Origin: a virus
Lineage: Duplodnaviria; Caudoviricetes
Length of the DNA stretch: 34,479 nt
Direction: 5' to 3' (one strand)
Virus record (IMG/VR): IMGVR_UViG_3300032266_001082
Coordinates: 1 to 34,479 of that record
A model generated the notes under the pieces. That model saw only the letters and a list, made by a program, of their open reading frames with translations. It did not search any database and was not told the DNA's origin. Below are positions 3,709 through 29,635 of this stretch, in pieces (the stretch's first letter is position 1; the number at the start of each line of letters is the position of its first letter). The position numbers and the translations under genes were made by a program.

Positions 3709-3960
3709 ATGTCAGTACAAAGATTAGTTCCCTTACATGCAGTAGCTTTAGCAACAGACCCAGCTAATCCACGCATCGGTGACATTTATTATAATACCGC
3801 TGCAACAGAATTAAGATACTATAATGGATCTATTTGGTCTCCTGTAGGAGGAGCAATAACTGGTTTGCTAGATCATATTCATACATATGATGGTGCAGTT
3901 TATTCTGTAGAAGCATATCAAGTTCCAAATCCTGGCACATTAGATGGCGGCGTTGCATAA
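3709..3960 (+). CDS. Small tail-fibre-associated protein
   Basis: GGGAG RBS. The PxxGDIYYNT...YYNG..W module is also present at the N-terminus of 2270..3697. It ends in LDGG. Confidence 0.6.
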   Translation: MSVQRLVPLHAVALATDPANPRIGDIYYNTAATELRYYNGSIWSPVGGAITGLLDHIHTYDGAVYSVEAYQVPNPGTLDGGVA

Positions 3961-5186
3961 TGTCATTTGTAACAATAAAAATAAGAAGGTCAACAACTGC
4001 ACAATGGGCTAGTTCTACAAAAATATTAGGCGCAGGCGAACTAGGACTAGATACCACATTAAATAAAATTAAAGTTGGTAATGGAACAAGCTTATGGTCA
4101 GCTCTTCCATTTATTAATGTTCTTCCAAGTGAATTTACAGAGTTGGCACAAGATGCTGTTGAGTCGGCATTAACAGCAGGCACGGGAATTACTAAAGTTT
4201 ATAACGATGCTGCAAACACAATAACATTAGCAGTTGATAGTACAATTGCAAATAAAACTTATGTAGATACAGCCGTATCAGGATTAAGCAATACTGCTTC
4301 AACAACCTATATTCCATTAAGCCTTTTAGGTAACTTTGATGGCGTAGCAGAGCTTGATGCAAGTGGATTTGTTCCAGATTCACAAATTTCAGCAACAATT
4401 GCAAGAGACTCAGAAGTGTCTTCAGCTATTTCAACGGAAATAACGAATAGAAATTCGGCTATTTCAACTGCAATTTCTACAGAGGTTACAGATAGAAATT
4501 CAGCAATATCAACTGCAGTAAATAATCTTATTAATTCAGCTCCAGGCACACTAGATACATTAGGTGAAATTGCAACAGCATTAACTGCTGATGAATCAGC
4601 GGCAGCAGCATTAACAACATTAGTAAATACTAAAGCTCCAAAAGCAGATCCAACATTTACGGGAACAGTTTCTGGAGTTACAAAAGCACATGTCGGGCTT
4701 GGCAATGTAGATAATACAACAGATGTTGGAAAACCTATTTCTACCGCTACTCAAACAGCACTTGATTTAAAAGCAAATCTTGCAGGACCAACATTTACAG
4801 GAACCGTATCAGGTATTACAAAAACTATGGTGGGTCTTAGCAATGTTGACAATACCTCAGATGACACAAAAGCTTTAATTTCTTATATTCCAGTTTCTGC
4901 CGCAACTCGAACAATAAATTCTTCAACTGATAAAAATCGGATGCTTGAATGTAGTGCTGCAATAACAATTACAATTCCAAATGATACTCAAGATGCTGGG
5001 TGGCCTATAGGATCTATGGTTGAAGTAAGACAAACTGGAACTGGTCAAATTACCATAACTAAAGATGCAGCTGTAACCATGGTAGGAGCAGATTCTGGAT
5101 TTAAGTCAAGAGTTCAATGGAGTACTCTAATGCTTGAAAAAAGAGCAGCTAATTCTTGGTTAGTTACAGGAGATACAACTGCATAA
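3960..5186 (+). CDS. Tail fibre protein with a major-tropism-determinant-like (Mtd_N/hyaluronidase-N) anchor
   Basis: N-terminal IKIRRSTTAQW...ILGAGELGLDT...KIKVGNG...W, GLxNVDNT fibre repeats, a 15-aa coiled-coil repeat (SAISTEITNRN) and a C-terminal WLVTGD domain. Confidence 0.8.
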   Translation: MSFVTIKIRRSTTAQWASSTKILGAGELGLDTTLNKIKVGNGTSLWSALPFINVLPSEFTELAQDAVESALTAGTGITKVYNDAANTITLAVDSTIANKTYVDTAVSGLSNTASTTYIPLSLLGNFDGVAELDASGFVPDSQISATIARDSEVSSAISTEITNRNSAISTAISTEVTDRNSAISTAVNNLINSAPGTLDTLGEIATALTADESAAAALTTLVNTKAPKADPTFTGTVSGVTKAHVGLGNVDNTTDVGKPISTATQTALDLKANLAGPTFTGTVSGITKTMVGLSNVDNTSDDTKALISYIPVSAATRTINSSTDKNRMLECSAAITITIPNDTQDAGWPIGSMVEVRQTGTGQITITKDAAVTMVGADSGFKSRVQWSTLMLEKRAANSWLVTGDTTA

Positions 5187-6415
5187 TGCCAAAGTCATCC
5201 AGAAGACTACATTCAGCTACTATTTCAAGATTAAAGGCTTTACTTTCTCTTATAGAAAATTTTAGTAGACTAGATCTTACAAATGCAGGATCAACATCTG
5301 CAAAATGGAAGCATATTGTTGCAGGTTGGACAACTTCACTTGGAAAAGGAACATCAACAGCAATTGGAGCACTTATATCAACAACTTTTGCATCAACAGA
5401 TGCAACATTAACTGCAAAAAATCCAGCATCTGGAGTAGGTCCAGCTTTCTGGATTACAGACTCTGGAAATTATTGGGCAGTAGTAAAAAATACAACAAAT
5501 ATTTGTCAAACATGCTCTGCCTGCGGTGTATATAATAGTTGTTCTTATTGTAGTTCATATGCATATGGGTCAAGCTCAAGCTGTGGGTGTGCTTCTTATA
5601 CACAAACACAATGCTGTAATACATACGGATATGTTACAGTCTGTTCTTCATACGGCACAACTACATGCTGTACAGCTTATACCTATGTTGTTTGTTGTGC
5701 AGCAGGATATTCAGATTATTACTATACATGTTGCCAAGCATACACCAGCTCAACTTGTTGTACTCAATATTATACATATTACGGCAGATTTTGCTGTGCA
5801 GCATATACTTATAATTCATACAAAGGTGGAGTTGTTTGTAGTCAATACTATAATTGTGCAGTGACGTTATGTTACGCTTATGGAACTTGCACAACATGCT
5901 CCTCATATGGAACTTGTTCAGTTTCTACATGCTTAGGTTATGGCGGATGCTTGCAGTGCAGCACATATGGAACATGTCAAGTTTGTACAGGATATTCAGA
6001 ACAGTTTACTTGCACAGGTTATACTTCTTGCACTGTATGTGGAGCCTATAATCAGTGCCAGTACTGTGATGGGTATTCCTATGGACCTAGCGCAGCATGT
6101 GGATGTGCCTCATCTTATACATATAATTGCAACTGTGCAGATCAGCACAAAATAGAATTAATTAAAAAAGAAAATGGATCAGAAACAGTTGTATCTTCAA
6201 CAAGTAATTCATCTTCGCAGATTGCTGGAATTAAAGTTACTACGGATGGCAATAATGTTACAGCTCAAGCCTATTCAGATACTAATTATTCTTCACAGAT
6301 AGGATCAAATCTAACTGCTGTAAATACTGGACAAAAGTCAAAAGACCATGGTATAATTTCAAGAGCTTCAAATGCAAGCCAAGGATATACAATAGATGAA
6401 TTTAGGGTAAATTAA
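5186..6415 (+). CDS. Putative fibre-tip protein: beta-sandwich (lectin-like) scaffold split by a 40-Cys/37-Tyr insert
   Basis: Start moved to the ATG at 5186 (TAATG overlap with the fibre gene). The flanks are Cys-free and beta-strand-like (PAFWITDSGNYWAVVK...KIELIKKENG...IKVTTDGNNVT...HGII...IDEF). The insert spans 5504-6136. Confidence 0.7.
   Translation: MPKSSRRLHSATISRLKALLSLIENFSRLDLTNAGSTSAKWKHIVAGWTTSLGKGTSTAIGALISTTFASTDATLTAKNPASGVGPAFWITDSGNYWAVVKNTTNICQTCSACGVYNSCSYCSSYAYGSSSSCGCASYTQTQCCNTYGYVTVCSSYGTTTCCTAYTYVVCCAAGYSDYYYTCCQAYTSSTCCTQYYTYYGRFCCAAYTYNSYKGGVVCSQYYNCAVTLCYAYGTCTTCSSYGTCSVSTCLGYGGCLQCSTYGTCQVCTGYSEQFTCTGYTSCTVCGAYNQCQYCDGYSYGPSAACGCASSYTYNCNCADQHKIELIKKENGSETVVSSTSNSSSQIAGIKVTTDGNNVTAQAYSDTNYSSQIGSNLTAVNTGQKSKDHGIISRASNASQGYTIDEFRVN
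5513..6112 (+). repeat. 28-aa direct repeat bracketing the Cys insert (5513-5596 and 6029-6112)
   Basis: CSACGVYNSCSYCSSYAYGSSSSCGCAS versus CTVCGAYNQCQYCDGYSYGPSAACGCAS: 17/28 identical, no gaps. Confidence 0.85.
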
Positions 6416-6814
6416 ATGAATAACAAACTTAGCTTTATTCAAAGCCTTAAAGACTATTTTAGAGATGTTAGTATATATATAAAAACACATGCCAATAAGT
6501 ATTTAAGAAACAATTTAAAAATAGGGTATAAGGTTCCAAAAGATCATGAGTTTATTCCAGATCAGTCTAAGCTAGGAATGCACCTTGCCATATTAGACCC
6601 AACATCTATGATAGTAGAAGACATTATGACAACAAACCCAAAGTTTGGTAATTTGCTTAAAATGGGACCAATTTTTATTGAAATTAATCATGAGCAAAAA
6701 AATAAATTAGATTTAAATTCAAAAAATTGGATATATAATGAAGACGAAAAAGATTTTTTTGAAATTAAAGAAATAGAGCCAGTTCCACTAGAGGAATGGA
6801 ATAAAAATGGTTGA
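6416..6814 (+). CDS. Hypothetical protein; C-terminal half resembles the small fibre-partner proteins at 7046, 23048 and 23350
   Basis: Abuts the upstream stop codon. Contains the pattern LAILD...IVEDIM...PIFIEI...WIYN...F. Confidence 0.55.
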   Translation: MNNKLSFIQSLKDYFRDVSIYIKTHANKYLRNNLKIGYKVPKDHEFIPDQSKLGMHLAILDPTSMIVEDIMTTNPKFGNLLKMGPIFIEINHEQKNKLDLNSKNWIYNEDEKDFFEIKEIEPVPLEEWNKNG

Positions 6815-7049
6815 TCCGTTTGAAAGGCCAGCCAGGCCATGGGACCTATATAATAAAAAAATAGGACGTGTAGATACATTAACTGCAGAACAAAGACTTG
6901 AGATTTGTAAAGGTTGTACTTTTTTTATAAAAACTACTAGCCAGTGCAAAAAATGTGGATGCTTGATGATAGCAAAAACAAAGCTACCAAACGCAGAATG
7001 CCCTATTGGAAAATGGGGACAAACAAAGATAGAGGAGGAAATAATATGA
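6807..7049 (+). CDS. Small six-Cys, probably metal-binding protein (DUF6171-like)
   Basis: RLEICKGC...CKKCGCLM...KLPNAECPIGKW with a GAGGA RBS. Family name recalled from the motif, not searched. Confidence 0.65.
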   Translation: MVDPFERPARPWDLYNKKIGRVDTLTAEQRLEICKGCTFFIKTTSQCKKCGCLMIAKTKLPNAECPIGKWGQTKIEEEII

Positions 7050-7318
7050 CAGTATATGAAGAGTGGTTAGCCACACAAAATGTTCCTGTTGCAGTGCCAC
7101 CAGAAAACATTAAAAAGCTAGCTTATGTTATTGATGGTAAAGTTGTTCAGACTTTAGCTACAGACGAAAGAATGTGGGCTATTATTTTGAGTAATCCAAC
7201 AATTGTTGACATTACAGATATAACATTTCCAGATCGTGTAGAAGGCGAGCTTATTTCACAAGTAGCAATAGGCACCGACTGGGCATACGACGGAACAACA
7301 TTTACACCACCAGCATAA
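7046..7318 (+). CDS. Small fibre-partner/chaperone-like protein
   Basis: Start moved to the ATG at 7046 (ATGA overlap, AGGAGG at 7033-7038). Pattern LAYVIDGKVV...IVDITD...GTDWAYDGTTF. Confidence 0.65.
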   Translation: MTVYEEWLATQNVPVAVPPENIKKLAYVIDGKVVQTLATDERMWAIILSNPTIVDITDITFPDRVEGELISQVAIGTDWAYDGTTFTPPA

Positions 7319-15992: not shown

Positions 15993-16492
15993 TGTACGCA
16001 CAAGTTATAGACAATAAAATTACTCAAGTTATAGATGAGGCTTCGTTAAGAGAGCTTTATCCATCAACACATTTTCCAGCAACAATTACTCAATCATCTT
16101 TAGAAGGATTTGATAATTGGTATGTTATTGAAGATAACAATGTTTTGCCAGAGTTTGACAAAGCATCTGAAAAATTAGAATTTACTAGAGCATTTAATGG
16201 AACATCAGTTGTGGGTCAATACTCAGCTGTTAAACTTTCAGCTGGAGAAAAAACAGCAGCAAAAGAATCAAGAAAAAGTGAAGTTAGATATCACAGAGAT
16301 AATACTTTAAACGCAACAGATTATCTTATGACATCAGACCTATTTAATTCATTTTCAGCAACAGATCAAAAAAAGATAGTTGAATATAGAAAAGCTTTAA
16401 GAGATTTAACAAATCAAGCAGATCCATTTAACATTACTTGGCCATCACTTGATATTGAATCGGTTACTCTAAGATATAAAGTAGAGATCTAA
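15992..16492 (+). CDS. Tail fibre assembly chaperone-like protein
   Basis: C-terminal VRYHRDNTLNATDY...YRKALRDL...ITWP motif typical of tail-fibre assembly chaperones. Paralogous to 25014..25457. Confidence 0.75.
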   Translation: MYAQVIDNKITQVIDEASLRELYPSTHFPATITQSSLEGFDNWYVIEDNNVLPEFDKASEKLEFTRAFNGTSVVGQYSAVKLSAGEKTAAKESRKSEVRYHRDNTLNATDYLMTSDLFNSFSATDQKKIVEYRKALRDLTNQADPFNITWPSLDIESVTLRYKVEI

Positions 16493-17406
16493 TGCCGTTT
16501 CCGCCAGCCAGATATGCTACTCAAGCAGGAGCAAAATCTTTTTTTCTAAGACAAATTATTACAAAGGGTTACGTACTTGCGGGTTACAGAAATAGTCAGC
16601 CTTGGTCAAGTGTTAATGAAGTTACGCATTCAACCGATACAACAATTGATTTAGGATCTCCTTTAAATAATAGTACCTCCTATCCAGGCGGGATGTGTGA
16701 TGATACATTTGCCTATGTTCTTAAAGCAAACAATACTGTTGGCGGAACAGGCACTCAAACAAATAAATATAACATGAGAACAAACTCATCTATTGTTGGC
16801 CCCAGCTCTCCTTATAACGTAGGAAATGCAGGAACACTTATGCATCAAGAACAACTATATGCTTATGGAAAACCAGCAGATGGATCTGCAGCAATTATGA
16901 AATTTAATTTTACAACACAGTCTTGGATGAGCTCTTTAGGTGCTGCTTATGGAAATAATAGCCAAACAATGTCAGCTTTTTATCACGAGAAGTATGGATA
17001 TCATTATGGAGATGATAATGGAGTTAGATTAACATTTGCAACAGAAACTCAAGCTAACTCTCCATGCAATGGTGTACACGGACAACAAAAAGCAATTTCT
17101 TCAAAGCTAACTTATGTCTATGCAGGAAATGAAGGCAACTACTCTGGCGGATACAATCTAAGAAGATTTAATGTTGTTACAGAAACAAACGTGGGTACCG
17201 TAACAAAGCCTATTGGAAATTGCGGAGAAGAAGATTTTGATATGGGCCAAAACCAACAGTACATGCTCGGAAACTACAATGGAGAGCAAAATAATAGGTC
17301 TTGGAGATTTAATTACGCAACAGACAGCGGATACGAAGGCGGATCAGGAATGCAGTCTAAGGGAGTTCCAGGCAGAAGTTCTGCCCAATCGGCATACCGA
17401 TCATAA
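16492..17406 (+). CDS. Kelch-like six-bladed beta-propeller, putative fibre tip
   Basis: About six repeats of xxY(V/M)xG...(R/K)F(N/T)xxT(D/E)(T/S). Coupled by TAATG to the chaperone gene. Confidence 0.65.
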   Translation: MPFPPARYATQAGAKSFFLRQIITKGYVLAGYRNSQPWSSVNEVTHSTDTTIDLGSPLNNSTSYPGGMCDDTFAYVLKANNTVGGTGTQTNKYNMRTNSSIVGPSSPYNVGNAGTLMHQEQLYAYGKPADGSAAIMKFNFTTQSWMSSLGAAYGNNSQTMSAFYHEKYGYHYGDDNGVRLTFATETQANSPCNGVHGQQKAISSKLTYVYAGNEGNYSGGYNLRRFNVVTETNVGTVTKPIGNCGEEDFDMGQNQQYMLGNYNGEQNNRSWRFNYATDSGYEGGSGMQSKGVPGRSSAQSAYRS

Positions 17407-17421
17407 TAGATAGGAAATAAA

Positions 17422-18150
17422 ATGAGATACATAAACGATATAACATCGGATGTTTCTAATTACACAAAATCACAAAAAGATATTCTTCTTTACGCTACAA
17501 ATAGACACTGGGGCACTCCAACATTCAAAATAGATAATTTTGTTGGTGGATCACAATTTACTCCTTTTGGAAAATTAAGACAGCTTCTTTTAGAGCTTGG
17601 GTCAAGAGAAACAATGATTGTAGAGCAAGAGCTTAAAATAGAAAGAGTTAAGCTAGAAATTGAACTAGAAAAAGAAAGAATTAGTTTTAGCACTTCTCCT
17701 ATAGAAATAAAAATTCATGAACTTAATATTAAAGAAAAAGAAAGAACTCTTTTAAATCAAAAAAATGGAGTTAGCTTAGTATACGAAGAACGAGATAAGT
17801 ATATGATGTTAATTGAGAAATTTAATAATTCTGAAGAGGGAAAACTTCCAGATGGTCGTCAGATTATGGATATCATTGGGAATTATGAAGAAGAAGAAAG
17901 ACTTGAAGCAGAGCTTTGGGGAATCAGGCTTGGGGCACAGGCAGCTTATGATTTAATGTTTTACGGAAGAGTAAATGGCGGAAATATGGAAGCAATTGAT
18001 CAGCTACCAAAAGAGATTAGAGAAATAGCCCTAGAAACTGCAGTAACTAAAGCAATTGAAACTAACAAACATTTAGATGTCCTTCAAATAGAAACTAGAA
18101 AGAGATTAGAATTATCTGACTCAGAAAACGGTCTTTGGGAAGAAGTTTAA
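17422..18150 (+). CDS. Coiled-coil hypothetical protein
   Basis: AGGA RBS; Glu/Lys/Leu-rich heptads after TPFGKLRQLLLEL. Confidence 0.7.
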   Translation: MRYINDITSDVSNYTKSQKDILLYATNRHWGTPTFKIDNFVGGSQFTPFGKLRQLLLELGSRETMIVEQELKIERVKLEIELEKERISFSTSPIEIKIHELNIKEKERTLLNQKNGVSLVYEERDKYMMLIEKFNNSEEGKLPDGRQIMDIIGNYEEEERLEAELWGIRLGAQAAYDLMFYGRVNGGNMEAIDQLPKEIREIALETAVTKAIETNKHLDVLQIETRKRLELSDSENGLWEEV

Positions 18151-18698
18151 TGATATATTTTTTATTTAGCACAGAAGATAATGCTCCACATATAAAAGAA
18201 GTAGGGTCATGGGGTAATGTTATGGTAGGGGAAATAGATGAAAGCCTAATACCATATATAAAAATTCCAGACTCAATATTTGTGTCGCAAGATGTAGCCT
18301 ATGCCTGGAAATTTGCAGGGAAGTATAAAGGAGAAATTAGCGTCAGAGAAAATACTAACTCTTATGATCAATTAGATATATCTTTACTAAAGCCACATAA
18401 AGACAAGTTTAAGTATACTTTATCTGAGAAGGATAAAGAAAACGGTTGCCTTTTTCATAAAGCAGTAATGTATTTTCTGTTAAACAAATATTATTATAAT
18501 AAGACTTTGATTTCAAAATTTACTCCTGAAGAACTAAGAGGCCCCGACTGGAAATCTGAAGAGCACCTAACAAATGACAAAAACAAAATAATTGCAGAAA
18601 TAAAGTCTTGCCAAGACTGGCATGAGACTGGTATACTAATATCTAATAGATTCGGAATTGCTCATATTCCCGAGGCCCTAGCCAAAATAGATTTGTAG
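18150..18698 (+). CDS. Hypothetical protein
   Basis: Start moved to the ATG at 18150 (TAATG overlap). It fills the gap exactly; no motif recognised. Confidence 0.65.
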   Translation: MIYFLFSTEDNAPHIKEVGSWGNVMVGEIDESLIPYIKIPDSIFVSQDVAYAWKFAGKYKGEISVRENTNSYDQLDISLLKPHKDKFKYTLSEKDKENGCLFHKAVMYFLLNKYYYNKTLISKFTPEELRGPDWKSEEHLTNDKNKIIAEIKSCQDWHETGILISNRFGIAHIPEALAKIDL

Positions 18699-18703
18699 GA
18701 AAA

Positions 18704-20347
18704 ATGTTTAGTGTACCGCTAAATCCCAAGCTTAACGAAAATCAATTAAATGATTTTATTTCTTTTTTAAAAAAATATAAAGCATTTATATACGATTTTT
18801 ATTTTACTTGCAGGGTAGCCCCATTCAATCAAGATGCCATGGGCGATATATTTCAAGGCGGCAAAGAAGATCACGACTATTTAATTGATCTTGCATTACA
18901 TATCCAGCAAGAGACAGGGGTGATTGCTTCAGCAGTATTTAATAATACAGAGGTTAGACCAGACCAAAAAAACCTAGATCTTTTTATTAAAAGCTTTTTA
19001 CCAATATATGAAATGGGAATTAAATCTGCCACAATACCACACACTCATTGGATGGCAACAGGACAAATTAAAAAAGCATTTCCAGATCTATTTGTAAAAA
19101 ATACTATTCTTAGAAATGTTTCAGAGCCAAGAGATATTGAGCACCTAGCAAAAGCTGGATTTGATTACATTAACCTTGACCGTGATCTAATGCGTGATCA
19201 TGAAAAGTTAAAACGTTTTAAAAAGGCAAAGGCTCAATTTGGGATAAAGATATCTCTGCTTGCCAACGAAGGATGCTATGGCGGCTGCATAATGATGGAT
19301 GAGCACTATCAATTCAACAATACCCGCACAGACGGACCTCAGTATTTTAATGACCCTATAAGCAGGGTTTCTTGCCCAAAATGGGATCATGAAGATTTTG
19401 CGGTATCTTTAAAGACAGCCAATTTTCCACCCTGGAGAGAAGACTGGCAAGAATTTATTGATGACCTTGGAATTGATGTTATTAAGATGCATGGAAGAGA
19501 ATCCCATGTCCGCTTAAAAGAAACAATGGAAATAATTAAGAGATATGCAAATAACGAAGAAATTTTATTTGATAGTTTTAATGATTTTATTGAAGAAACT
19601 AATTTAATAGACAAGCCAATTGCCATCTGGCGCAACAAAATTAAAAATTGTAAGTTTGATTGCTGGGATTGCGGATACTGCGATAAAATCATGGCTGCTA
19701 AATACGGTAAGCATATTAATCCAAAAGTTGCTGTTGTTGCAAAAGAATTAGTTGATTCTGTAAATAGTTCAATTGAAATTGATATACCAGGACTAACCTC
19801 TACTAGAGTTCAGTCATTAATTAATAGTTTAGCTAAGTCTTCTGCTGGATACCTTGAAATTGGTTCATACCAGGGCGCTACAGCCGCTGCGGCGTTAAAG
19901 GGCAACAACCTACATGCATATTTTGTAGACACATGGCAGGAAGCCCCACAAGCCGTAAAAGAAGGTTGGGATACACCAAGCACTAATTCATTAGAAGAGT
20001 TTAAAAATAATATAGCCCCATACAAAGGACATAATAAAGTATTTATATCTAACTCAGATATGTTTAAAGTAAACGTAAAAAACATTTCAGATATCGACCT
20101 ATTTTTTTATGATGGACCCCATGATCTTGAGTCTACAAAAAATGCTGTAAAGTATTACTCACCAGTATTTGCTAAACATTCTATTTTAATATTTGATGAT
20201 GCAAATTGGACGGAAGTAGTGCAAGGTGCCTATAAAGGAATAATTGAATCAGGATTAAAAATATTGTATAGTAAAAAAGTGTTAAATGCACTTGAGTCAG
20301 ACACCGAGTGGTGGAATGGACTTTATATAGTAGTGGTGGAAAAATAA
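18704..20347 (+). CDS. U32-family (Fe-S) domain fused to a class I SAM methyltransferase (Methyltransf_24-like)
   Basis: U32-type motifs INLDRD, LANEGCYGGC, SC and GIDVIKMHGR, plus an extra CKFDCWDCGYC. The C-terminal domain carries YLEIGSYQG...VDTW...DLFFYDGPH...IFDD. Confidence 0.75.
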   Translation: MFSVPLNPKLNENQLNDFISFLKKYKAFIYDFYFTCRVAPFNQDAMGDIFQGGKEDHDYLIDLALHIQQETGVIASAVFNNTEVRPDQKNLDLFIKSFLPIYEMGIKSATIPHTHWMATGQIKKAFPDLFVKNTILRNVSEPRDIEHLAKAGFDYINLDRDLMRDHEKLKRFKKAKAQFGIKISLLANEGCYGGCIMMDEHYQFNNTRTDGPQYFNDPISRVSCPKWDHEDFAVSLKTANFPPWREDWQEFIDDLGIDVIKMHGRESHVRLKETMEIIKRYANNEEILFDSFNDFIEETNLIDKPIAIWRNKIKNCKFDCWDCGYCDKIMAAKYGKHINPKVAVVAKELVDSVNSSIEIDIPGLTSTRVQSLINSLAKSSAGYLEIGSYQGATAAAALKGNNLHAYFVDTWQEAPQAVKEGWDTPSTNSLEEFKNNIAPYKGHNKVFISNSDMFKVNVKNISDIDLFFYDGPHDLESTKNAVKYYSPVFAKHSILIFDDANWTEVVQGAYKGIIESGLKILYSKKVLNALESDTEWWNGLYIVVVEK

Positions 20348-21258
20348 TGCCTAGTCTAAGTATATTGCTTGAAGAATGGTACTATGTTCTAATGCTTGGG
20401 ACCGTAATGACCCTTTCATATTATGCACGTAAGTATGATGTGTTTCAGCCATTTTATTCATTTATTGCAAAAATTGTAAAATCTAAAAGAGCAGTAATTG
20501 CTTTAACCTCCGCAATTTCGGGAGTGCTTCCAATTAATGGAAGAGTAGTAATATCGGCTGGAGTTTTAAATACAATGGCTCCACAAGATGATAGAAGAAA
20601 AAAATATGGGGTAATTGATTATTTAGCTACCCACCATTTCTATTTTTGGTCACCATTAGAAAAAACAGTAATTCTTCCAATGGCAGCACTTAACATTTCC
20701 TATGCATCATTTGTTGGATCAGTATGGCCTCTTCTTGCAACCTTATTAATATGTGTACTATATTATATTTTTGTTGTAGTTAAAGAAGACGACGTGGATA
20801 TTGTTATTCGTAGTCAAAGAGAAAAGCATACACTAGATACAAAAAAAATTATTAAAGAAAATATTGTAACTTTAGCAATTGTCACAGGGCTTTTAATGGC
20901 AGGCAATTTTGTTGGATATCACAAAGAGTATTTCTCACAAATTGTAGATTCAGCTCATAAATCAGGACTACTTATTCTAGTCCTTTTAGGATCTTTTGTT
21001 CTATCATTCATACTTGGCAGCAGCGGTAAATTTGCTGGGGTCCTATCAATTTCCCTTCCAATATTTGGAGCAGCTTCTTTGCCAATACTCTTTGCCGCAA
21101 ATTGGGCTGGATACATTCTTTCTCCAATGCATAAATGTATGATAATTGGCAAGAGAATGTTTGGGTCAACCTTTAAAGACTATTATACTGTTTTGGCTGG
21201 GGTTGTGTTCTTTGTATTCTTAGTTGCAGTTGTTCAGACCTATACAACTGGCCTATAA
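20347..21258 (+). CDS. Polytopic membrane protein, permease-like (DUF401/ion-transporter-superfamily-like)
   Basis: Start moved to the ATG at 20347 (TAATG overlap). Roughly 8-10 hydrophobic segments; motifs SGVLPINGR, THHFYFWSPLE, GSSGKFAG and GYILSPMHKC. Confidence 0.65.
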   Translation: MPSLSILLEEWYYVLMLGTVMTLSYYARKYDVFQPFYSFIAKIVKSKRAVIALTSAISGVLPINGRVVISAGVLNTMAPQDDRRKKYGVIDYLATHHFYFWSPLEKTVILPMAALNISYASFVGSVWPLLATLLICVLYYIFVVVKEDDVDIVIRSQREKHTLDTKKIIKENIVTLAIVTGLLMAGNFVGYHKEYFSQIVDSAHKSGLLILVLLGSFVLSFILGSSGKFAGVLSISLPIFGAASLPILFAANWAGYILSPMHKCMIIGKRMFGSTFKDYYTVLAGVVFFVFLVAVVQTYTTGL

Positions 21259-22052: not shown

Positions 22053-23045
22053 ATGCCATCATCCAATAGCACGTCCTCTATATATTTACCAGGACTTACA
22101 ACAACAATTGATGCTGCCGTAACAGCAGGTCTACAAACTGGTATTACCGCACAAGCAATTGCAGCAGGTGGAGTAAGCTCAATGTATATGCCTATAGAGG
22201 CTAGAGTTTATAGCTCTGGTACCTGGACACGTCCAGCAAATACAGGGCCAGTAATTAAATTAGTTCTTGTTGGTGGCGGAGGAGCGGGTGGTTGTGGTGT
22301 TTCATGGAGCCATAGCGGATCTGGTGGCGGAGGTGCAGGACAACTTGTTGAAAGATGGTTAGATATTTCTGCAATCCCTATTGGAGGAACCATTCCAATT
22401 ACTATCGGTGATGGTGGAGCAGCAGTAGGTGGAAACTCAAACGGAAACAACGGTGGTAATTCTACTTTTGGCGCTAATGGAAATTCATTTTACTTAATTG
22501 CATATGGCGGCGGCGGCGGAGGCTATCCAGAAAATAATGGAAATAATGGAAATAGCGGAAGCATGGGAGCGGGTTATAGTAATCAAAACGGCGGCGGTTC
22601 TGGCGGTGGAGGCGGATCTAACTTTGGACAATCTTACGGCGGCGGAGGCGGCGGAGGCGGCGCAAGAATGGGAGGCGGGCCAGCAAGATGTACAACAACA
22701 ACAAATGGAGTTGGATCATCTGGTCGTATGGGTGGATACGGATTTGGACCTGGAGCATCTGGTGGAGGATCGGGTGCATCGCATAACTGGACTTCATGGA
22801 TTGGAGTTGGTGGCCCAGGTGGAGACGGCGAATATGGAATTGCAGGCGGCGGCGGTGGCGGCGGCGGCGCAGGTGGTGGAGGATCTTGTGGTGGCGGAGC
22901 AGGAGGCTCACAAACAACAGATAACACTGGTGGACAAGGCATGAACGGAACAGGATCAGGCGGAGGCGGCAATAATCACACTGGTGGAAACGGTGCAAGG
23001 GGAGGTTCTGGCGTAGCTATTATTACATACTACGTTAAGGCATAA
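22053..23045 (+). CDS. Glycine-rich domain virion protein
   Basis: AAGGAG RBS. SGTWTRPAN...VLVGGGGAGG...GGSGVAIITY architecture of phage Gly-rich domains. Confidence 0.8.
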   Translation: MPSSNSTSSIYLPGLTTTIDAAVTAGLQTGITAQAIAAGGVSSMYMPIEARVYSSGTWTRPANTGPVIKLVLVGGGGAGGCGVSWSHSGSGGGGAGQLVERWLDISAIPIGGTIPITIGDGGAAVGGNSNGNNGGNSTFGANGNSFYLIAYGGGGGGYPENNGNNGNSGSMGAGYSNQNGGGSGGGGGSNFGQSYGGGGGGGGARMGGGPARCTTTTNGVGSSGRMGGYGFGPGASGGGSGASHNWTSWIGVGGPGGDGEYGIAGGGGGGGGAGGGGSCGGGAGGSQTTDNTGGQGMNGTGSGGGGNNHTGGNGARGGSGVAIITYYVKA

Positions 23046-23047
23046 TT

Positions 23048-23350
23048 ATGAGAGATTACATATTTATTAATGAGGATGGAACAGTACATAACATATTGCA
23101 TCTAGTTGGACCAGAAGCAATTGCTGAAAATGAAGATTTAAAAGATCTTTTACATTTTGATTACACAGACTGGGACTATGATGATAAGCCAGGACCAGAT
23201 TGGACATATAATAAAGAAACACAAGTATGGACAAAATCTGCTCCATTTATTTCAACAGTTGTTGTAGAAAATCTTGTACCTTTAGTTGAACCAGTAGCAG
23301 ATTCTCCAATTGTACAGCCAGATACTGCTCCAATGGTAGGTGAAAACTAA
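23048..23350 (+). CDS. Small acidic fibre-partner protein
   Basis: YIFINEDGTVHNIL...PGPDWTYN...W; follows the Gly-rich gene by 2 nt. Confidence 0.65.
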   Translation: MRDYIFINEDGTVHNILHLVGPEAIAENEDLKDLLHFDYTDWDYDDKPGPDWTYNKETQVWTKSAPFISTVVVENLVPLVEPVADSPIVQPDTAPMVGEN

Positions 23351-23595
23351 TGTCAAGAACTTGGGCTATAGTAGTAAATAATATTATTGGAAACGTAATT
23401 GTTGCTGAAGAAGATTATATTGCTTCACATCCAGATTTATCTGGATTAGATAGAATTGATATTACAGATTATAATCCACAACCAGGAATTATGTGGACAT
23501 TAGAAGATAATAAATTTAAAGCACCAGAATCAGTAAGACCAAAACCAGGGCATGAAGTATCAAACAATGCTCTTGAAATCGAGGTAAAACCATAA
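23350..23595 (+). CDS. Small fibre-partner protein
   Basis: WAIVVNNIIGNVIV...IDITD...PGIMWTL...F..P, with TAATG overlaps on both sides. Confidence 0.65.
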   Translation: MSRTWAIVVNNIIGNVIVAEEDYIASHPDLSGLDRIDITDYNPQPGIMWTLEDNKFKAPESVRPKPGHEVSNNALEIEVKP

Positions 23596-24530
23596 TGGCA
23601 ACATACGGAACAATTAATCAAATTTATGTACCAGGACTTGATGCAGCAATTCAATCTTCAGCAACAACACTTTCAACATCTATTGCAATTCCGTTAATTG
23701 CAGCAAACCTTTCAGGTTTTTATAATGCTTATGAAGTTTCAATTTTAAGCGGTGGGTCATGGACTCGTCCAGCAAATAGTGCACCACAAGTACAGGTAAC
23801 ATTGGTTGGCGGCGGCGGAGGCGGCGGATGCACAGCTGGATCAACCGATCATGGTGGCGGAGGTGCAGGACAACTGTTAAGAAGAACTCTTGATATTTCT
23901 TCTGTTGCAATAGGTTCAGGAATTTCAATTGGTATTGCATCAGGTGGAACCTGTAATAACCAAGGTGGAAACTCAACATTTGGAACTTCAGGACAACCGT
24001 TTTATATGATTGCATACGGCGGAGGGTCAACACAAGGTAACGGACAATCAGGTTCAAACGGACCAGGGGCTAACGATAGAACAGGAATTGGCTCAGGCGG
24101 TGGCGGTCAAGGTGAATGGCAAAATTCATGGGGCGGCGGCGGCGGTGGCGGCGGAGCAGGTGGAGCTGGACAAGAAGCTGATACACAGTACCCTAACTCT
24201 GGAGGATACTCTGGATACTTTGGTGGATCAAGAAACTCATCAGAAGGATCATCAGGTGGTGGGCCAGGTTCCGCTAACTCAAATGACTCAGGATATAGAT
24301 CACACGGAGGTCGTGGCGGTTCTGGACTTTACGGTCTTGCAGGCGGCGGCGGTGGATCAGCAAGAGGATCAAGTGGTAGTGGATCTAATGGCGGAGGCCA
24401 AGGACAAGCAGACTACACTGGTTCTGCAGGAACAAATGCTCAACCAAACTCAGGATCAGGCGGCGGCGGTGGAGCAGCAAACACTGGCGGTTCAGGAATC
24501 TGCAAGATTACCTATTGGGTAAAAGCTTAA
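23595..24530 (+). CDS. Glycine-rich domain virion protein (paralog of 22053..23045)
   Basis: Shares IY.PGL, WTRPAN, GGGGAGQL, FY.IAYGGG and ITY.VKA with the upstream paralog. Confidence 0.8.
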   Translation: MATYGTINQIYVPGLDAAIQSSATTLSTSIAIPLIAANLSGFYNAYEVSILSGGSWTRPANSAPQVQVTLVGGGGGGGCTAGSTDHGGGGAGQLLRRTLDISSVAIGSGISIGIASGGTCNNQGGNSTFGTSGQPFYMIAYGGGSTQGNGQSGSNGPGANDRTGIGSGGGGQGEWQNSWGGGGGGGGAGGAGQEADTQYPNSGGYSGYFGGSRNSSEGSSGGGPGSANSNDSGYRSHGGRGGSGLYGLAGGGGGSARGSSGSGSNGGGQGQADYTGSAGTNAQPNSGSGGGGGAANTGGSGICKITYWVKA

Positions 24531-26188: not shown

Positions 26189-28555
26189 ATGACATACGCT
26201 CCGATTAGATTTGCAGGACCAACATTAATCCCAGCATCTCCAGCCAAAATATACACGGCTGTATCTACAATAATTATTAAAGAGTTTACTGTAACAAACT
26301 TTAGTAGCTCAACATTGCCATTTAGCTTATTTCTTTTGGGATCAAATGGTGACTCTGTAATCAATCTATATAATATAAATAGATCAAGCCTAGATGCATA
26401 TTCACTTTATGGAAATGTAAATGTAAATAATAATACAACTCTTAAACTAGAACACTCATTAATATTAAATGCTGGAGAATCAATTGCAGCAGTTACAACA
26501 ACACCAAATTGCTATTCATTAACTATATCTGGAGTAGATCTTTCTGGGACATTGGCTTCTGAAGGAACAACTGGCGGAACTACGGGTGCATCAGGTGCGG
26601 GGTATTCAGATGTAACTTCATTAACAACAAATCTTATTGGAACAGGATCAAAAGTATTTTATGTAAATAATAGCGGAGCATATACAGCAGGACAACGTGT
26701 ACGTGTAATTAATCCACTAGCTTTAACAACATATGTTGAAGGTATTATTACTCAAGTTGTAAAAAATGTAAGCATAACTGTATCGGTTGATGCAACAAAT
26801 GGAACTGGAACATATTCAAGCTGGGTGTTTGCTGTAACTGGAAATCCAGGAACATCTGGTACATCAGGATCAAATGGAGCAGCAGGACCCACTGGCGCAA
26901 CAGGACCAACAGGACCAACTGGATCAACTGGATCAACTGGAGCAACTGGAACGTCTTTAACATTACAAGGCACTGTTGCAAATGTTGCAGCATTGCCAGC
27001 AACTGCATTTTTAGGTGCAACATATTTAGTAGTAGACACTCAACAAATGTATGTTTGGAATGGAACATCATTTTCAAATGCAGGATCATATAAAGGTTCT
27101 ACGGGAGCAACGGGATCAACAGGCGGAACTGGCCCAACAGGCGGAACTGGCCCTACTGGTGCTGCTGGAAGATCTATCAATATTAAAGGAACAAAAGCAA
27201 ATGTTGCAGCACTTCCATCTACAGGAAACACATCGGGAGATTCATGGATTGCATTAACTGATTTGCATTTGTATGTTTGGGATGGCACAGCCTGGTTGGA
27301 TGCAGGACAATTTCAAGGACCAACTGGAGCAACTGGCCCAGCAACCATTGCAGTTGGCACTGTATCGTCTACAGGACCAGCAGGTACAACTACTGTAACA
27401 AATTCTGGTTCTGGAACAGCGGGAGTATTTGATTTTGTTTTACAGCAAGGACCTACAGGCGCAACAGGCCCAACAGGCTCTGCGGCTACAATTGCAATTG
27501 GAACAATCACATCAACTGGACCTACAGGAACTCCTTCTGTTACAAATGTTGGAACAACAACTGCAGCATTACTTGATTTTATTTTAAAACAAGGAATAAC
27601 TGGACCTACTGGTCCTGCTGGACCAACAACAATAACTTTAGGCACAATTACTTCTACAGGACCAACTGGTTCTCCTTTAATCACAAATTCTGGAACATCT
27701 ACAGATCTTGTTTTAAATTTCACTCTTAAGCAAGGCCCAACAGGTGCTGCTGGCGCAACAGGTCCTACAGGTGCAGCAAGCACAGTAGCAGGCCCAACAG
27801 GACCAACTGGTATTGGAATAACAGGTGCAACAGGTGCTGCTGGAGCAGATGGAACTTCAGTTAGAATATTAGGGTCATATGCATCACAAGCAGCCCTTAC
27901 AACAGCAAGACCAACAGGAACACTTGGCGATGGTTATTTAGTTAATGGAGAGCTCTATGTATGGACAGGCTCAGCTTGGACAAATGTTGGAAGTATTGTA
28001 GGCCCTACAGGTGCTACAGGCCCTACAGGAGTAGGTTCTACAGGTGCTACAGGGGCTACAGGCCCTACAGGAGCAAATGGATCAAGTATTCAAGGTCCCA
28101 CAGGACCCACTGGATCAGCAGGATCAACAGGAGCAACAGGAGCAACAGGAGCAACAGGAGCAACAGGATCTGGACTACAGGGACCAACTGGACCAACTGG
28201 AGCAACTGGCCCTTCTGGCGGTGCTACAGGTGCAACTGGATTAACAATAATTGAAAATTATCAAGTAACAAATGTTGGTTCTGGAAGCTACACTATTGAT
28301 GGAACGGCAAGTAAGACTTTAACATTAGTAAGAGGAAAAACTTACTTTTTTACAGTAAATGCTACTGGTCATCCATTTTATATTAAAACAGCTCAAGTAA
28401 CAGGAACTGCAAGTTCTTATGATACTGGAGTTACAGGAAATGGAACAGCAGTTGGTGGAATTACATTTACTGTTGACGCAACTGCACCAAATACGTTATA
28501 CTATATTTGTCAATTCCATGCTGCAATGACAGGTACTATTAACATAATCGGCTAA
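26189..28555 (+). CDS. Collagen-like (GPT/GAT/GST) fibre with a C-terminal cupredoxin-like domain
   Basis: Long G-X-T tracts, three xLP...G..Y/W...(L/M)YVWxG knobs and three TIxxGT(I/V)...VTN modules. The C-terminus reads GHPF...[11 protein letters not shown]. Confidence 0.8.
28125..28168 (+). repeat. Perfect 9-bp tandem repeat (CAACAGGAG, about 4.9 copies) encoding GAT triplets
   Basis: Read directly from the sequence. Confidence 0.85.
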
Positions 28556-28573
28556 TTAAAAGTCAGGAAATAA

Positions 28574-29635
28574 ATGAAAATAGCAGTATATACAATTGCT
28601 TTAAATGAAGAGCAGTTTGTTAAGCGTTGGTATGAGTCTGCAAAAGATGCTGACTATTTATTAATTGCAGATACAGGCTCTACAGATAAAACAAAAGAAT
28701 TAGCATCAAAACTTGGTATAAATATTTATGATATATCAGTGGCCCCCTGGCGATTTGATGATGCTAGAAATGCTGCCCTATCATTAATTCCAGCAGATAT
28801 TGATTACTGCATATCATTAGATATGGATGAAGTTCTTTCTGAAAACTGGAGAGAAAAACTAGAAAAAATAAACCCTAATACAACAAGACCTATACATAGA
28901 TTAGTTACTTCATTTGATGAAAATGGAAATCCAGGTGTTGAATTTGATGCATTAAGAATGCACTCGAGACATGGACATAGATGGAAATATCCAATACATG
29001 AATCTGTTTCATTTTATGGCATAGATGAGGTTAGAGAAAATGTAGATATAAAAATATTACATTATCCAGATAACAATAAATCAAGAGGACAATATCTTCC
29101 GCTTTTACAAATGGCTGCACAAGAAGATCCAGCTAGCGATAGATGTGCACATTACTATGCCAGAGAGCTATTCTTTTATGGAAGATATGAAGAAGCGGCA
29201 GCTGAATTTAAAAGGCATATATCTTTGCCGTCTGCTTTCTGGAAACCAGAAAGATGTGAGTCAATGAGATATATTGCAAAGTGTCAACCAGATGAAAAAG
29301 AGTACTGGCTTAAATCAGCTATTACAGAATGTCCAGAAAGAAGAGAGCCTTTTGTAGATCTTGCTCAACATTTTTATGACATAAAAGACTGGGACAAGGT
29401 AAAAGAATATTCGGAACTTGCTTTAAATATAAAAGAAAAGTTTTTAGGATATTTTTGTGAGGCAGAAGCTTGGGGCTGGAAACCTCATGATTTATTAGCA
29501 TTAGCAAGCTATAATCTAGGGCTATATGATGCGGCATTAGTTCATGGTAAAATTGCATTAGAGTTAAATAATCATGATAGGCTAAAAAAGAATATAGAAT
29601 TCTATGAATTAGCTTTATTAAATAACGGAGAGTAA
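28574..29635 (+). CDS. Glycosyltransferase family 2 with C-terminal TPR repeats
   Basis: IAVYTIALNEE, IADTGSTD, FDDARNAAL, the DxD motif LDMDE and W.YPIHE, followed by a TPR-like helical tail. Confidence 0.88.
   Translation: MKIAVYTIALNEEQFVKRWYESAKDADYLLIADTGSTDKTKELASKLGINIYDISVAPWRFDDARNAALSLIPADIDYCISLDMDEVLSENWREKLEKINPNTTRPIHRLVTSFDENGNPGVEFDALRMHSRHGHRWKYPIHESVSFYGIDEVRENVDIKILHYPDNNKSRGQYLPLLQMAAQEDPASDRCAHYYARELFFYGRYEEAAAEFKRHISLPSAFWKPERCESMRYIAKCQPDEKEYWLKSAITECPERREPFVDLAQHFYDIKDWDKVKEYSELALNIKEKFLGYFCEAEAWGWKPHDLLALASYNLGLYDAALVHGKIALELNNHDRLKKNIEFYELALLNNGE

Follow-up and report, generated by a model that had tools for sequence, protein, structure and literature searches.

The window, by which we mean the whole 34,479-nucleotide stretch of tailed-phage DNA that was analysed, contains a fibre gene followed directly by the gene for a 409-residue tip protein (P0001) and a set of small genes (Table 1). 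Placement of the tip gene directly after the fibre gene, as for gp38-like fibre tips, was seen in the window and in the related loci listed, and the order fibre, tip, two accessory genes, DUF6171 and phrog_7084 was common to those loci. The C-terminal domain of the fibre protein was found in the gene immediately upstream of 41 of 72 family tips and may be the docking site for the tip protein. No match to the tip gene was found among cultured phages, so its probable placement on the virion draws on gene context. The products of 6416-6814 and 7046-7318 were matched by the same HMMs although pairwise BLAST did not link them, and the 132-residue product belonged to no library family. phrog_7084 was present within 4 kb after 23 of 31 family tip clusters, and a fold search with it gave no result. 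Up to three paralogous copies of phrog_7084 sat directly after tips (window, L124, L126, L127 and L130), sharing a conserved K-x-C-x-P motif.

Table 1. Features of the fibre-tip cluster in the window
Feature	Coordinates	Strand	Basis
Fibre gene, 408 aa, Mtd_N at N-terminus	3960..5186	+	Pfam PF18454 E=3e-12; PHROG tail fibre/minor tail
Fibre C-terminal domain, last ~104 residues, conserved	4872-5183	+	repeatedly found just before tip genes
Tip protein P0001, 409 aa, predicted ConA-like domain with cysteine-ladder insert	5186..6415	+	ORF, composition, structure prediction
Basic/helical N-terminal segment and first half of predicted ConA-like beta-sandwich, Cys-free	5186..5503	+	composition, predicted structure
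Outbound arm Cys107-Cys204, 20 Cys, mostly CC-x-x-Y units	5504..5797	+	sequence, ladder
Basal module, residues 113-138, sequence twin of return-arm residues 285-311	5522..5599	+	sequence comparison
Val150, outbound half of lost Cys pair	5633..5635	+	Cys there in P0014, P0016 and 48-50-Cys relatives
Tip loop AAYTYNSYKGGVV	5798..5836	+	conservation 0.80; modelled turn 211-214
Return arm Cys218-Cys317, 20 Cys, C-xxY-xx-C-xx units	5837..6136	+	sequence, ladder
Thr275, return half of lost Cys pair	6008..6010	+	homologue alignment
Return copy of basal module, residues 285-311	6038..6118	+	sequence comparison
Second half of predicted ConA-like beta-sandwich, Cys-free	6137..6415	+	composition, predicted structure
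Accessory protein, 132 aa, possibly chaperone-like, judged by position	6416..6814	+	profile shared with 7046-7318
DUF6171 / phrog_13558, 80 aa, six invariant Cys, candidate helper for Cys-rich tips	6807..7049	+	family match
Accessory protein, 90 aa, ends W-x-Y-D-G, possibly chaperone-like	7046..7318	+	shared HMMs
phrog_7084, 246 aa	7327..8067	+	PHROG match

The DNA is real, as one public contig, which may be its source, covers the whole stretch; a second run of the same study covered 5399-6562 with 14 differences from the window, and a freshwater run contained diverged pieces of the stretch. An RNA-library run (X19) was rejected as a sign of transcription, since it covered only part of the tip gene. 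The window makes up an entire virus record and also encodes what we take to be ribonucleotide-reductase-like, portal-like and prohead-like genes. The host is probably a freshwater actinobacterium, because whiB, which is used as an actinophage marker (PMC6802176), was found in two of five related contigs.

All 40 Cys of the tip protein and 37 Tyr lie in an insert of 211 residues (residues 107-317, nt 5504-6136) with five charged residues and no His, between two Cys-free flanks. Twenty Cys stand on each side of the tip loop, which sits between Cys20 and Cys21 and holds the only Lys of the insert. An earlier sequence-only reading had proposed from this composition and its mirror symmetry that the insert forms a long disulfide-bonded hairpin. 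Its counts were all correct when repeated from the 409-residue ORF, including the 20 Cys on each side of the loop at 5798-5836. The outbound CC-xxY and return C-xxY-xx-C units were seen again in the ladder, and its spacer series of 10,7,10,7,7,7,7 and 4,2,4,2,2,2,2 holds under that reading's own way of counting. When the linkers were shuffled, 104 of 20,000 arrangements were as mirror-symmetric as the window ladder or better. A DNA inverted repeat or hairpin was ruled out as the origin of this symmetry, since a single 17-nt pair was the only one found and was not adequate. Gly made up 21 of the 211 residues without Gly-rich runs. The tip protein had no match in Pfam, PHROG or NCBIfam, and curated families gave two stray matches among 108 tip relatives. 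BFVD returned six uncharacterised proteins of uncultured phages, and the ESM Atlas returned only unnamed clusters and one SO2946-like row below threshold (score 0.89, 37% of members).

To follow the ladder among homologues, the 40 closest of the 48 sequences found by the homologue search were combined with the window protein and 18 full-length locus sequences into a close set (n=59), leaving out a fragment (P0042) and the distant P0043-P0049. The arm centre was fixed independently of Cys by the YKGG-type loop motif. The number of Cys was equal on both arms in 59/59 sequences, with 14-25 per arm in 23 distinct ladders, and arm lengths correlated over those ladders (r=0.90). The sequence-only reading had named unpaired or asymmetric Cys change among homologues as what would count against it, and not one of the 59 showed any. 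It had also expected units to come and go in mirrored pairs, which is what was found. L097, 87% identical to the window protein, carries two insertions about 400 nt apart, one of 66 nt in the outbound arm and one of 54 nt in the return arm, each with 4 Cys. When rung changes were mapped on a tree built from the flanks only, six well-supported sister pairs or groups differed in rung number and did so symmetrically every time (40/50, 40/42, 42/50, 48/42, 30/32 and 34/36 Cys), and paired units were gained or lost on at least six branches. In a 14-member clade (support 100/98) the arms are swapped, with the CC units on the return arm. Three colinear relatives keep 40/40 Cys despite 7, 8 and 16 synonymous changes in Cys codons.

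The window ladder itself is missing one mirrored pair, as had been claimed from a compensated double loss at Val152 and Gln273. The nearer relatives P0014 and P0016 (42 Cys, 75-77% identical) carry the pair at Val150/Thr275 instead, and the more distant P0026 fills Val152/Gln273; both position pairs have the same index sum of 425. The double loss observed in P0014 (Cys 10 and 33 of 42) forms a nested pair, and crossed pairing within units was rejected on this ground. This covariation of Cys in the homologues strongly supports nested Cys(i)-Cys(n+1-i) pairing, which for the window is the Cys(i)-Cys(41-i) pairing first proposed.

Under nested pairing the linkers fell in a small set (0/5, 7/2, 5/0, 2/7, 10/4, 4/10, 8/8 and 10/10). 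Beyond the four basal intervals of the distinct ladders, 268 of 350 intervals had a difference of 5 or 6, and in 34 the difference was zero, a 0/5/6 rule derived from the same family on which it was scored. In the window the index sums of partners alternated between 420-422 and 425-427, suggesting two types of rung in the stalk, a constant type A and an optional type B offset by 5 residues. A type A rung would join two C-x-x-Y motifs in a constant register (sums 420-422), at a spacing of 9 or 11 residues, and each Tyr would likely pack against the disulfide of its own rung; such rungs were present throughout the ladders listed. Type B rungs would lie 5-6 residues off that register (sums 425-427); the position can be filled at either of two symmetric places, and where the rung is lost, 8/8 stands in place of 5/0 plus 2/7, or 10/10 in place of 5/0 plus 4/9. 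Read in this way the window ladder has lost one type B rung. Residues 113-138 and 285-311 are sequence twins, and nested pairing would set them antiparallel about a Cys122-Cys294 rung. Because the type B rungs would stand 5 residues off the type A register, a plain straight beta-ribbon could presumably not hold both, and each unit would therefore have to kink. The antiparallel stalk with up to 20 disulfides originally proposed is thus supported as a hairpin and would not be a straight ladder. Its length had been put at no more than about 35 nm, which stands as a ceiling. The covalent path gives a loose bound of 29-33 nm, with a ceiling of 32-33 nm to the tip, hand arithmetic with rungs taken across the axis (52 shortest-path steps plus the loop) gives about 20 nm, and a length of 20-32 nm is likely by these sums.

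The fold of the flanks was assessed by structure prediction. An AF2 model of P0001 from 40 in-register sequences had a mean pLDDT of 63 and a pTM of 0.39, with strands at 135-210 and 215-288 joined by a turn at 211-214. pLDDT was 70-81 over residues 141-280 and below 50 in the basal module (113-140 and 281-309), and residues 12-66 were also poor. AF2 drew a regular beta-hairpin, a shape that could not accommodate the two rung types together. A natural short-insert relative, P0061, was used as a stand-in for the insert-less fold, and its model from 108 sequences had a pLDDT of 82 (94-98 in the flanks) with the insert leaving from one hairpin. The best matches to the P0001 model spanned both flanks (range 24-408; CBM66 Z 11.0, TM4 gp23 Z 10.3), as did those to P0061 over residues 26-295 (CBM66 Z 15.5, galactocerebrosidase lectin domain 15.2, TM4 gp23 receptor-binding domain 15.2, Douge 8zdo_a 14.8). 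The models thus bear out the earlier expectation that the flanks close into a single domain, predicted here to be one ConA-like sandwich with the insert extending one beta-hairpin that turns at YKGG. The C-terminal domain of TM4 gp23 (9n6a), Douge 8zdo chain a and CBM66 (4b1m) have the same kind of beta-sandwich and matched P0061 at Z 14.8-15.5, with rmsd 2.8-4.2 A over 148-176 residues and 5-16% identity. The TM4 and Douge actinophage domains also share with P0001 a tail context and a probable actinobacterial host. The matches to all three were limited to the flanks and left the Cys ladder uncovered. Foldseek of the P0001 model against the PDB gave no match at E<=0.001, and the structure searches turned up no counterpart of the 211-residue Cys ladder, a result that is by itself no proof of a new fold. 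When DUF6171, phrog_7084, the family profile and the C-terminal domain of the fibre protein were searched by sequence against solved structures, no match was better than E 0.014.

Together these data strongly support the mirrored Cys ladder as a real feature of what would be a phage tip adhesin of lectin fold, and no structure found resembles its stalk. Our preferred reading, to which we give a probability of roughly 0.7, is that the 211-residue insert is an antiparallel hairpin with 20 nested disulfides, held on a ConA-like base that probably caps the fibre, and with its basic loop turned toward the host. The two arms, matched Cys for Cys, would likely zip into one long hairpin and form a stiff uncharged rod of about 20-32 nm that reaches through or past the outer cell layer, where the Lys/Tyr tip would contact an anionic receptor. 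Paired duplications and deletions would retune the length and side chains of the stalk; such changes would arise by duplication or out-of-register recombination and then be filtered by selection, with the mirrored ones alone surviving. The disulfides may be formed in or after the dying cell, possibly aided by the neighbouring six-Cys DUF6171 protein. The disulfides, the place on the virion and the receptor contact by the tip are inferred. In the close family the tip loop was more conserved than the mid-arms (0.80 vs 0.61). Across the wide family Lys and Arg made up 5.5% of tips as compared to 1.3% of arms, and at least one was present in 60 of 122 tips as compared to 150 of 1008 arm 13-mers. 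This four-fold enrichment and the conserved tip argue against the best-surviving alternative, in which the hairpin is real and disulfide-stapled, the ConA-like base binds a host glycan, and the rod acts as a spacer, tether or shield. That alternative is improbable in our estimate, and it draws on the resemblance of the base to carbohydrate-binding modules, on the half of family tips that have no Lys or Arg and on an insert span that varies from 42 to 373 residues. It also draws on the Douge baseplate CBM, which binds M. smegmatis cells (PMC13033339); Douge 8zdo chain a (311 aa, range 104-308) fits this gp23 module.

The wide family was collected by a profile search that gave at least 234 clusters at 50% identity, of which 150 were listed and the 128 with both flanks were analysed. 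Among these 128 listed matches 2350 of 2356 Cys were inside the insert, and the number of insert Cys was even in 125, odd in 2 and zero in 1 (odd counts were seen in P0064 and P0178, and also in the loci L048, L051, L119 and L122). Counts of 0 and 2 modulo 4 were about equally frequent in the distant matches listed (65 vs 60). Because counts were even with no preference for multiples of four, the unit of change is taken to be a pair of Cys, as in a disulfide, and not a Cys4 site. This bears on a second and quite unlikely alternative, in which the Cys bind metal (Zn, Cu or Fe-S) bridging the arms or two chains, at least in the cytoplasm. Phage proteins are made in a reducing cytoplasm, the insert has CxxC motifs, the neighbouring DUF6171 has six invariant Cys, and an Erv1/Alr-type oxidase search of five related contigs gave no match (its controls were silent too, so that it stood without a positive control), all of which would suit metal. 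Against metal, Cys are lost two at a time, His and acidic residues are depleted in the wide-family inserts (0.2% His, 1.9% Asp+Glu), and the five charged residues of the window insert are too few to offset ten thiolate sites. The composition and counts are not those of intrachain Cys4 metal-site proteins. Metal bridging had been left possible by the sequence-only reading, and the pair-wise counts now disfavour Cys4 sites; two-Cys-per-chain sites between chains and a transient Zn-held precursor are variants that these counts accommodate.

A mirror test of the 122 listed members with at least 8 Cys was passed by 67 at p<0.05 and by 44 at p<0.01. The 55 listed distant members that failed did so partly because regular spacing leaves the test powerless and partly because of one-sided repeats or knobs. 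Members of the L029-L039 type, P0114, P0170 and P0171 resemble local knobs or one-sided repeats. In 797 of 1149 pairs nested partners agreed on the +3 aromatic, more often than shuffled partners did (null 728 +/- 12, with a maximum of 767), and linker differences across the wide family peaked at 0, +/-1, -5 and +5. The one-sided members bear on the very unlikely possibility that the insert folds into a row of small disulfide knots, each of them local, or into a solenoid, with no out-and-back hairpin, for which the short C-x-x-Y repeats on both arms and the one-sided CPSGG-type repeats of some distant members can be cited. Local knots would leave the coupled indels about 400 nt apart, the paired losses across the loop and the tracking of arm lengths without a reason, and parallel (5/19) or shifted (at most 9/19) registers fitted worse than the nested register (14/19). 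A hairpin that enters the membrane as a beta-barrel pore stem or class II fusion-like finger is hardly credible, as its weak Foldseek pore-stem rows (E 0.11 or worse, rmsd mostly >25 A) were dismissed as homology and reflect merely a long hairpin, its profile match to alphavirus E1 is weak (E 0.014), large hydrophobic residues (ILVMF) make up 7.6% with no period-2 pattern, the length varies nine-fold where a membrane span would be of fixed length, and the base is ConA-like and not a fusion domain I.

Several family members depart from the common plan. P0182 has no Cys and carries a 65-residue insert with PPSYYAG repeats on both arms, making it a natural control, and P0124 has 10 Cys with a central loop of more than 150 residues and N-Y-G-x-T-G-G-type repeats. 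L029-L039 (upstream of 5001) share the same flanks and have Cys-free YSAQLNPAYSFS-type outbound repeats and CPSGG-x-LSG-x-x-C return repeats, the copy numbers of which climb together (22, 24 and 26 Cys). The return repeat may resemble the TraN stalk repeats. The sole family match in a cellular genome collection, L258, is on a Bacteroidetes-labelled MAG contig and is likely a mis-binned phage contig, as it has the same cassette as phage locus L142.

The proposed hairpin was compared to known systems. Theta-defensin and protegrin types are short free cystine-ladder peptides with two or three rungs in one register; nested cross-strand Cys pairing would be common to both, and the P0001 insert would differ in having 20 rungs and two registers, with alternating index sums, over 211 residues inside a folded domain. 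The T4 gp37 needle is likewise an elongated out-and-back receptor-binding tip, and is a trimer that uses His-bound iron, whereas the P0001 insert has no His. The loose likeness drawn earlier to the bovine ultralong CDR H3 holds in that a hairpin of a beta-sandwich has grown into a projection with a distal binding element. The bovine hairpin has 40-70 residues, an Ig base and disulfides in the knob (PMC5994613); P0001 has 211 residues, a lectin-fold base, its Cys in the stalk and a Cys-free 13-residue tip. The T-even/S16 gp38 and Pam3 gp24 proteins are, like P0001, separate tip modules of the fibre cluster with variable aromatic loops, and they have glycine-rich lattices and no ladder (PMC9942802), in contrast to P0001, which has no such lattice. 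The same paper reports disulfides in the Pam3 virion by mass spectrometry, at the attachment of fibre to wedge, so that freshwater phage tails do form disulfides. The mycobacteriophage Jabs virion has about 1,700 disulfide bonds and CBM-bearing adhesion proteins (PMC13419713), in a cross-component network as compared to the single intrachain hairpin proposed here. The sequence-only reading knew of no described phage receptor-binding architecture of this kind, and a literature search covering few subscription papers likewise gave no account of a phage protein with a hairpin of this type.

Receptor-binding proteins of phages of freshwater Actinobacteria are essentially uncharacterised. If the preferred hairpin reading is right, the tip protein would recognise the host with a newly shaped device, namely a rod of tens of nm that is zipped covalently and has its length edited in mirrored pairs. 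The coupled indels would give a direct read-out of a disulfide pattern, which is a rare natural case. Protein design, too, would gain a useful element in a two-stranded rod that is stiff, uncharged and programmable in length. How phages assembled in a reducing cytoplasm form many disulfides would become testable, with DUF6171 as a named candidate.

The association of DUF6171 with the tips was scored over the 4 kb downstream of each tip, in loci collected with the tip profile, and 22 of 78 tips lacked enough room. DUF6171 was downstream of the tip in 50 of the 56 loci with room (28 of 31 clusters), and one of the three clusters without it has a 4-Cys tip. Cys-poor tip families of the same kind of phage had DUF6171 in 0/18 and 0/19 cases, each family being one single cluster. 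Of the 29 distinct DUF6171 genes, 25 had an ORF with at least 6 Cys just upstream, and these ORFs included unrelated Pro-rich stalks that carry Cys knobs. The six Cys were invariant across 112 DUF6171 sequences, and an ESM Atlas search with the neighbour at 6807-7049 also led to DUF6171. Counting against a dedicated role, DUF6171 is carried by 81 cultured-phage records of other hosts. Among seven cultured-phage DUF6171 records, none of the translated neighbouring genes was Cys-rich in four, and three had neighbours of only 1-2% Cys. Thioredoxin was present in two of five related contigs and is not specific. Export by Tat or Sec for oxidation outside the cell was ruled out, since the basic N-terminus has no following hydrophobic stretch and is absent from many relatives. 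The literature, with few subscription papers covered, contained no paper naming DUF6171. A role for DUF6171 as a helper of tip oxidation is suggested by this gene context, tentatively and at perhaps one chance in three. Still more doubtful is a larger version in which the zipper is a new repeat fold with its own folding pathway, a ruler for the depth of the host layer adjusted by mirrored duplication, and is oxidised by DUF6171 inside the infected bacterium. Were that the case, C-x-x-Y rungs would be interchangeable and two-fold-symmetric with optional 5-offset cross-braces, and DUF6171 would be the first factor dedicated to disulfide formation in a tailed phage.

DUF6171 also came after unrelated tips with PPFF, PTPT or VTP stalks and small Cys-rich end knobs (L053, L065, L075, L078, L080, L084 and L092). 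DUF6171-like frames were unannotated or lay under other frames in the Syn9, PSS2, S-LBS1, Sf-FP1 and BUDD records (L260:4001-4165, L261:4001-4195, L262:4001-4186, L263:4001-4144 and L264:4001-4132).

Elsewhere in the window, at 26189-29635, a collagen-like protein with GPT/GAT repeats precedes a glycosyltransferase-like TPR gene, and the two are possibly a fibre glycosylation pair. At 16492-21258, by labels read from sequence, a 304-residue aromatic-rich tip-like gene is followed by two accessory genes, by a 547-residue protein that has a Cys cluster and ends in a methyltransferase-like part, and by a membrane protein. A tandem pair of glycine-rich adhesin-like genes, separated by two small accessory genes, lies at 22053-24530 and served as Cys-poor controls.
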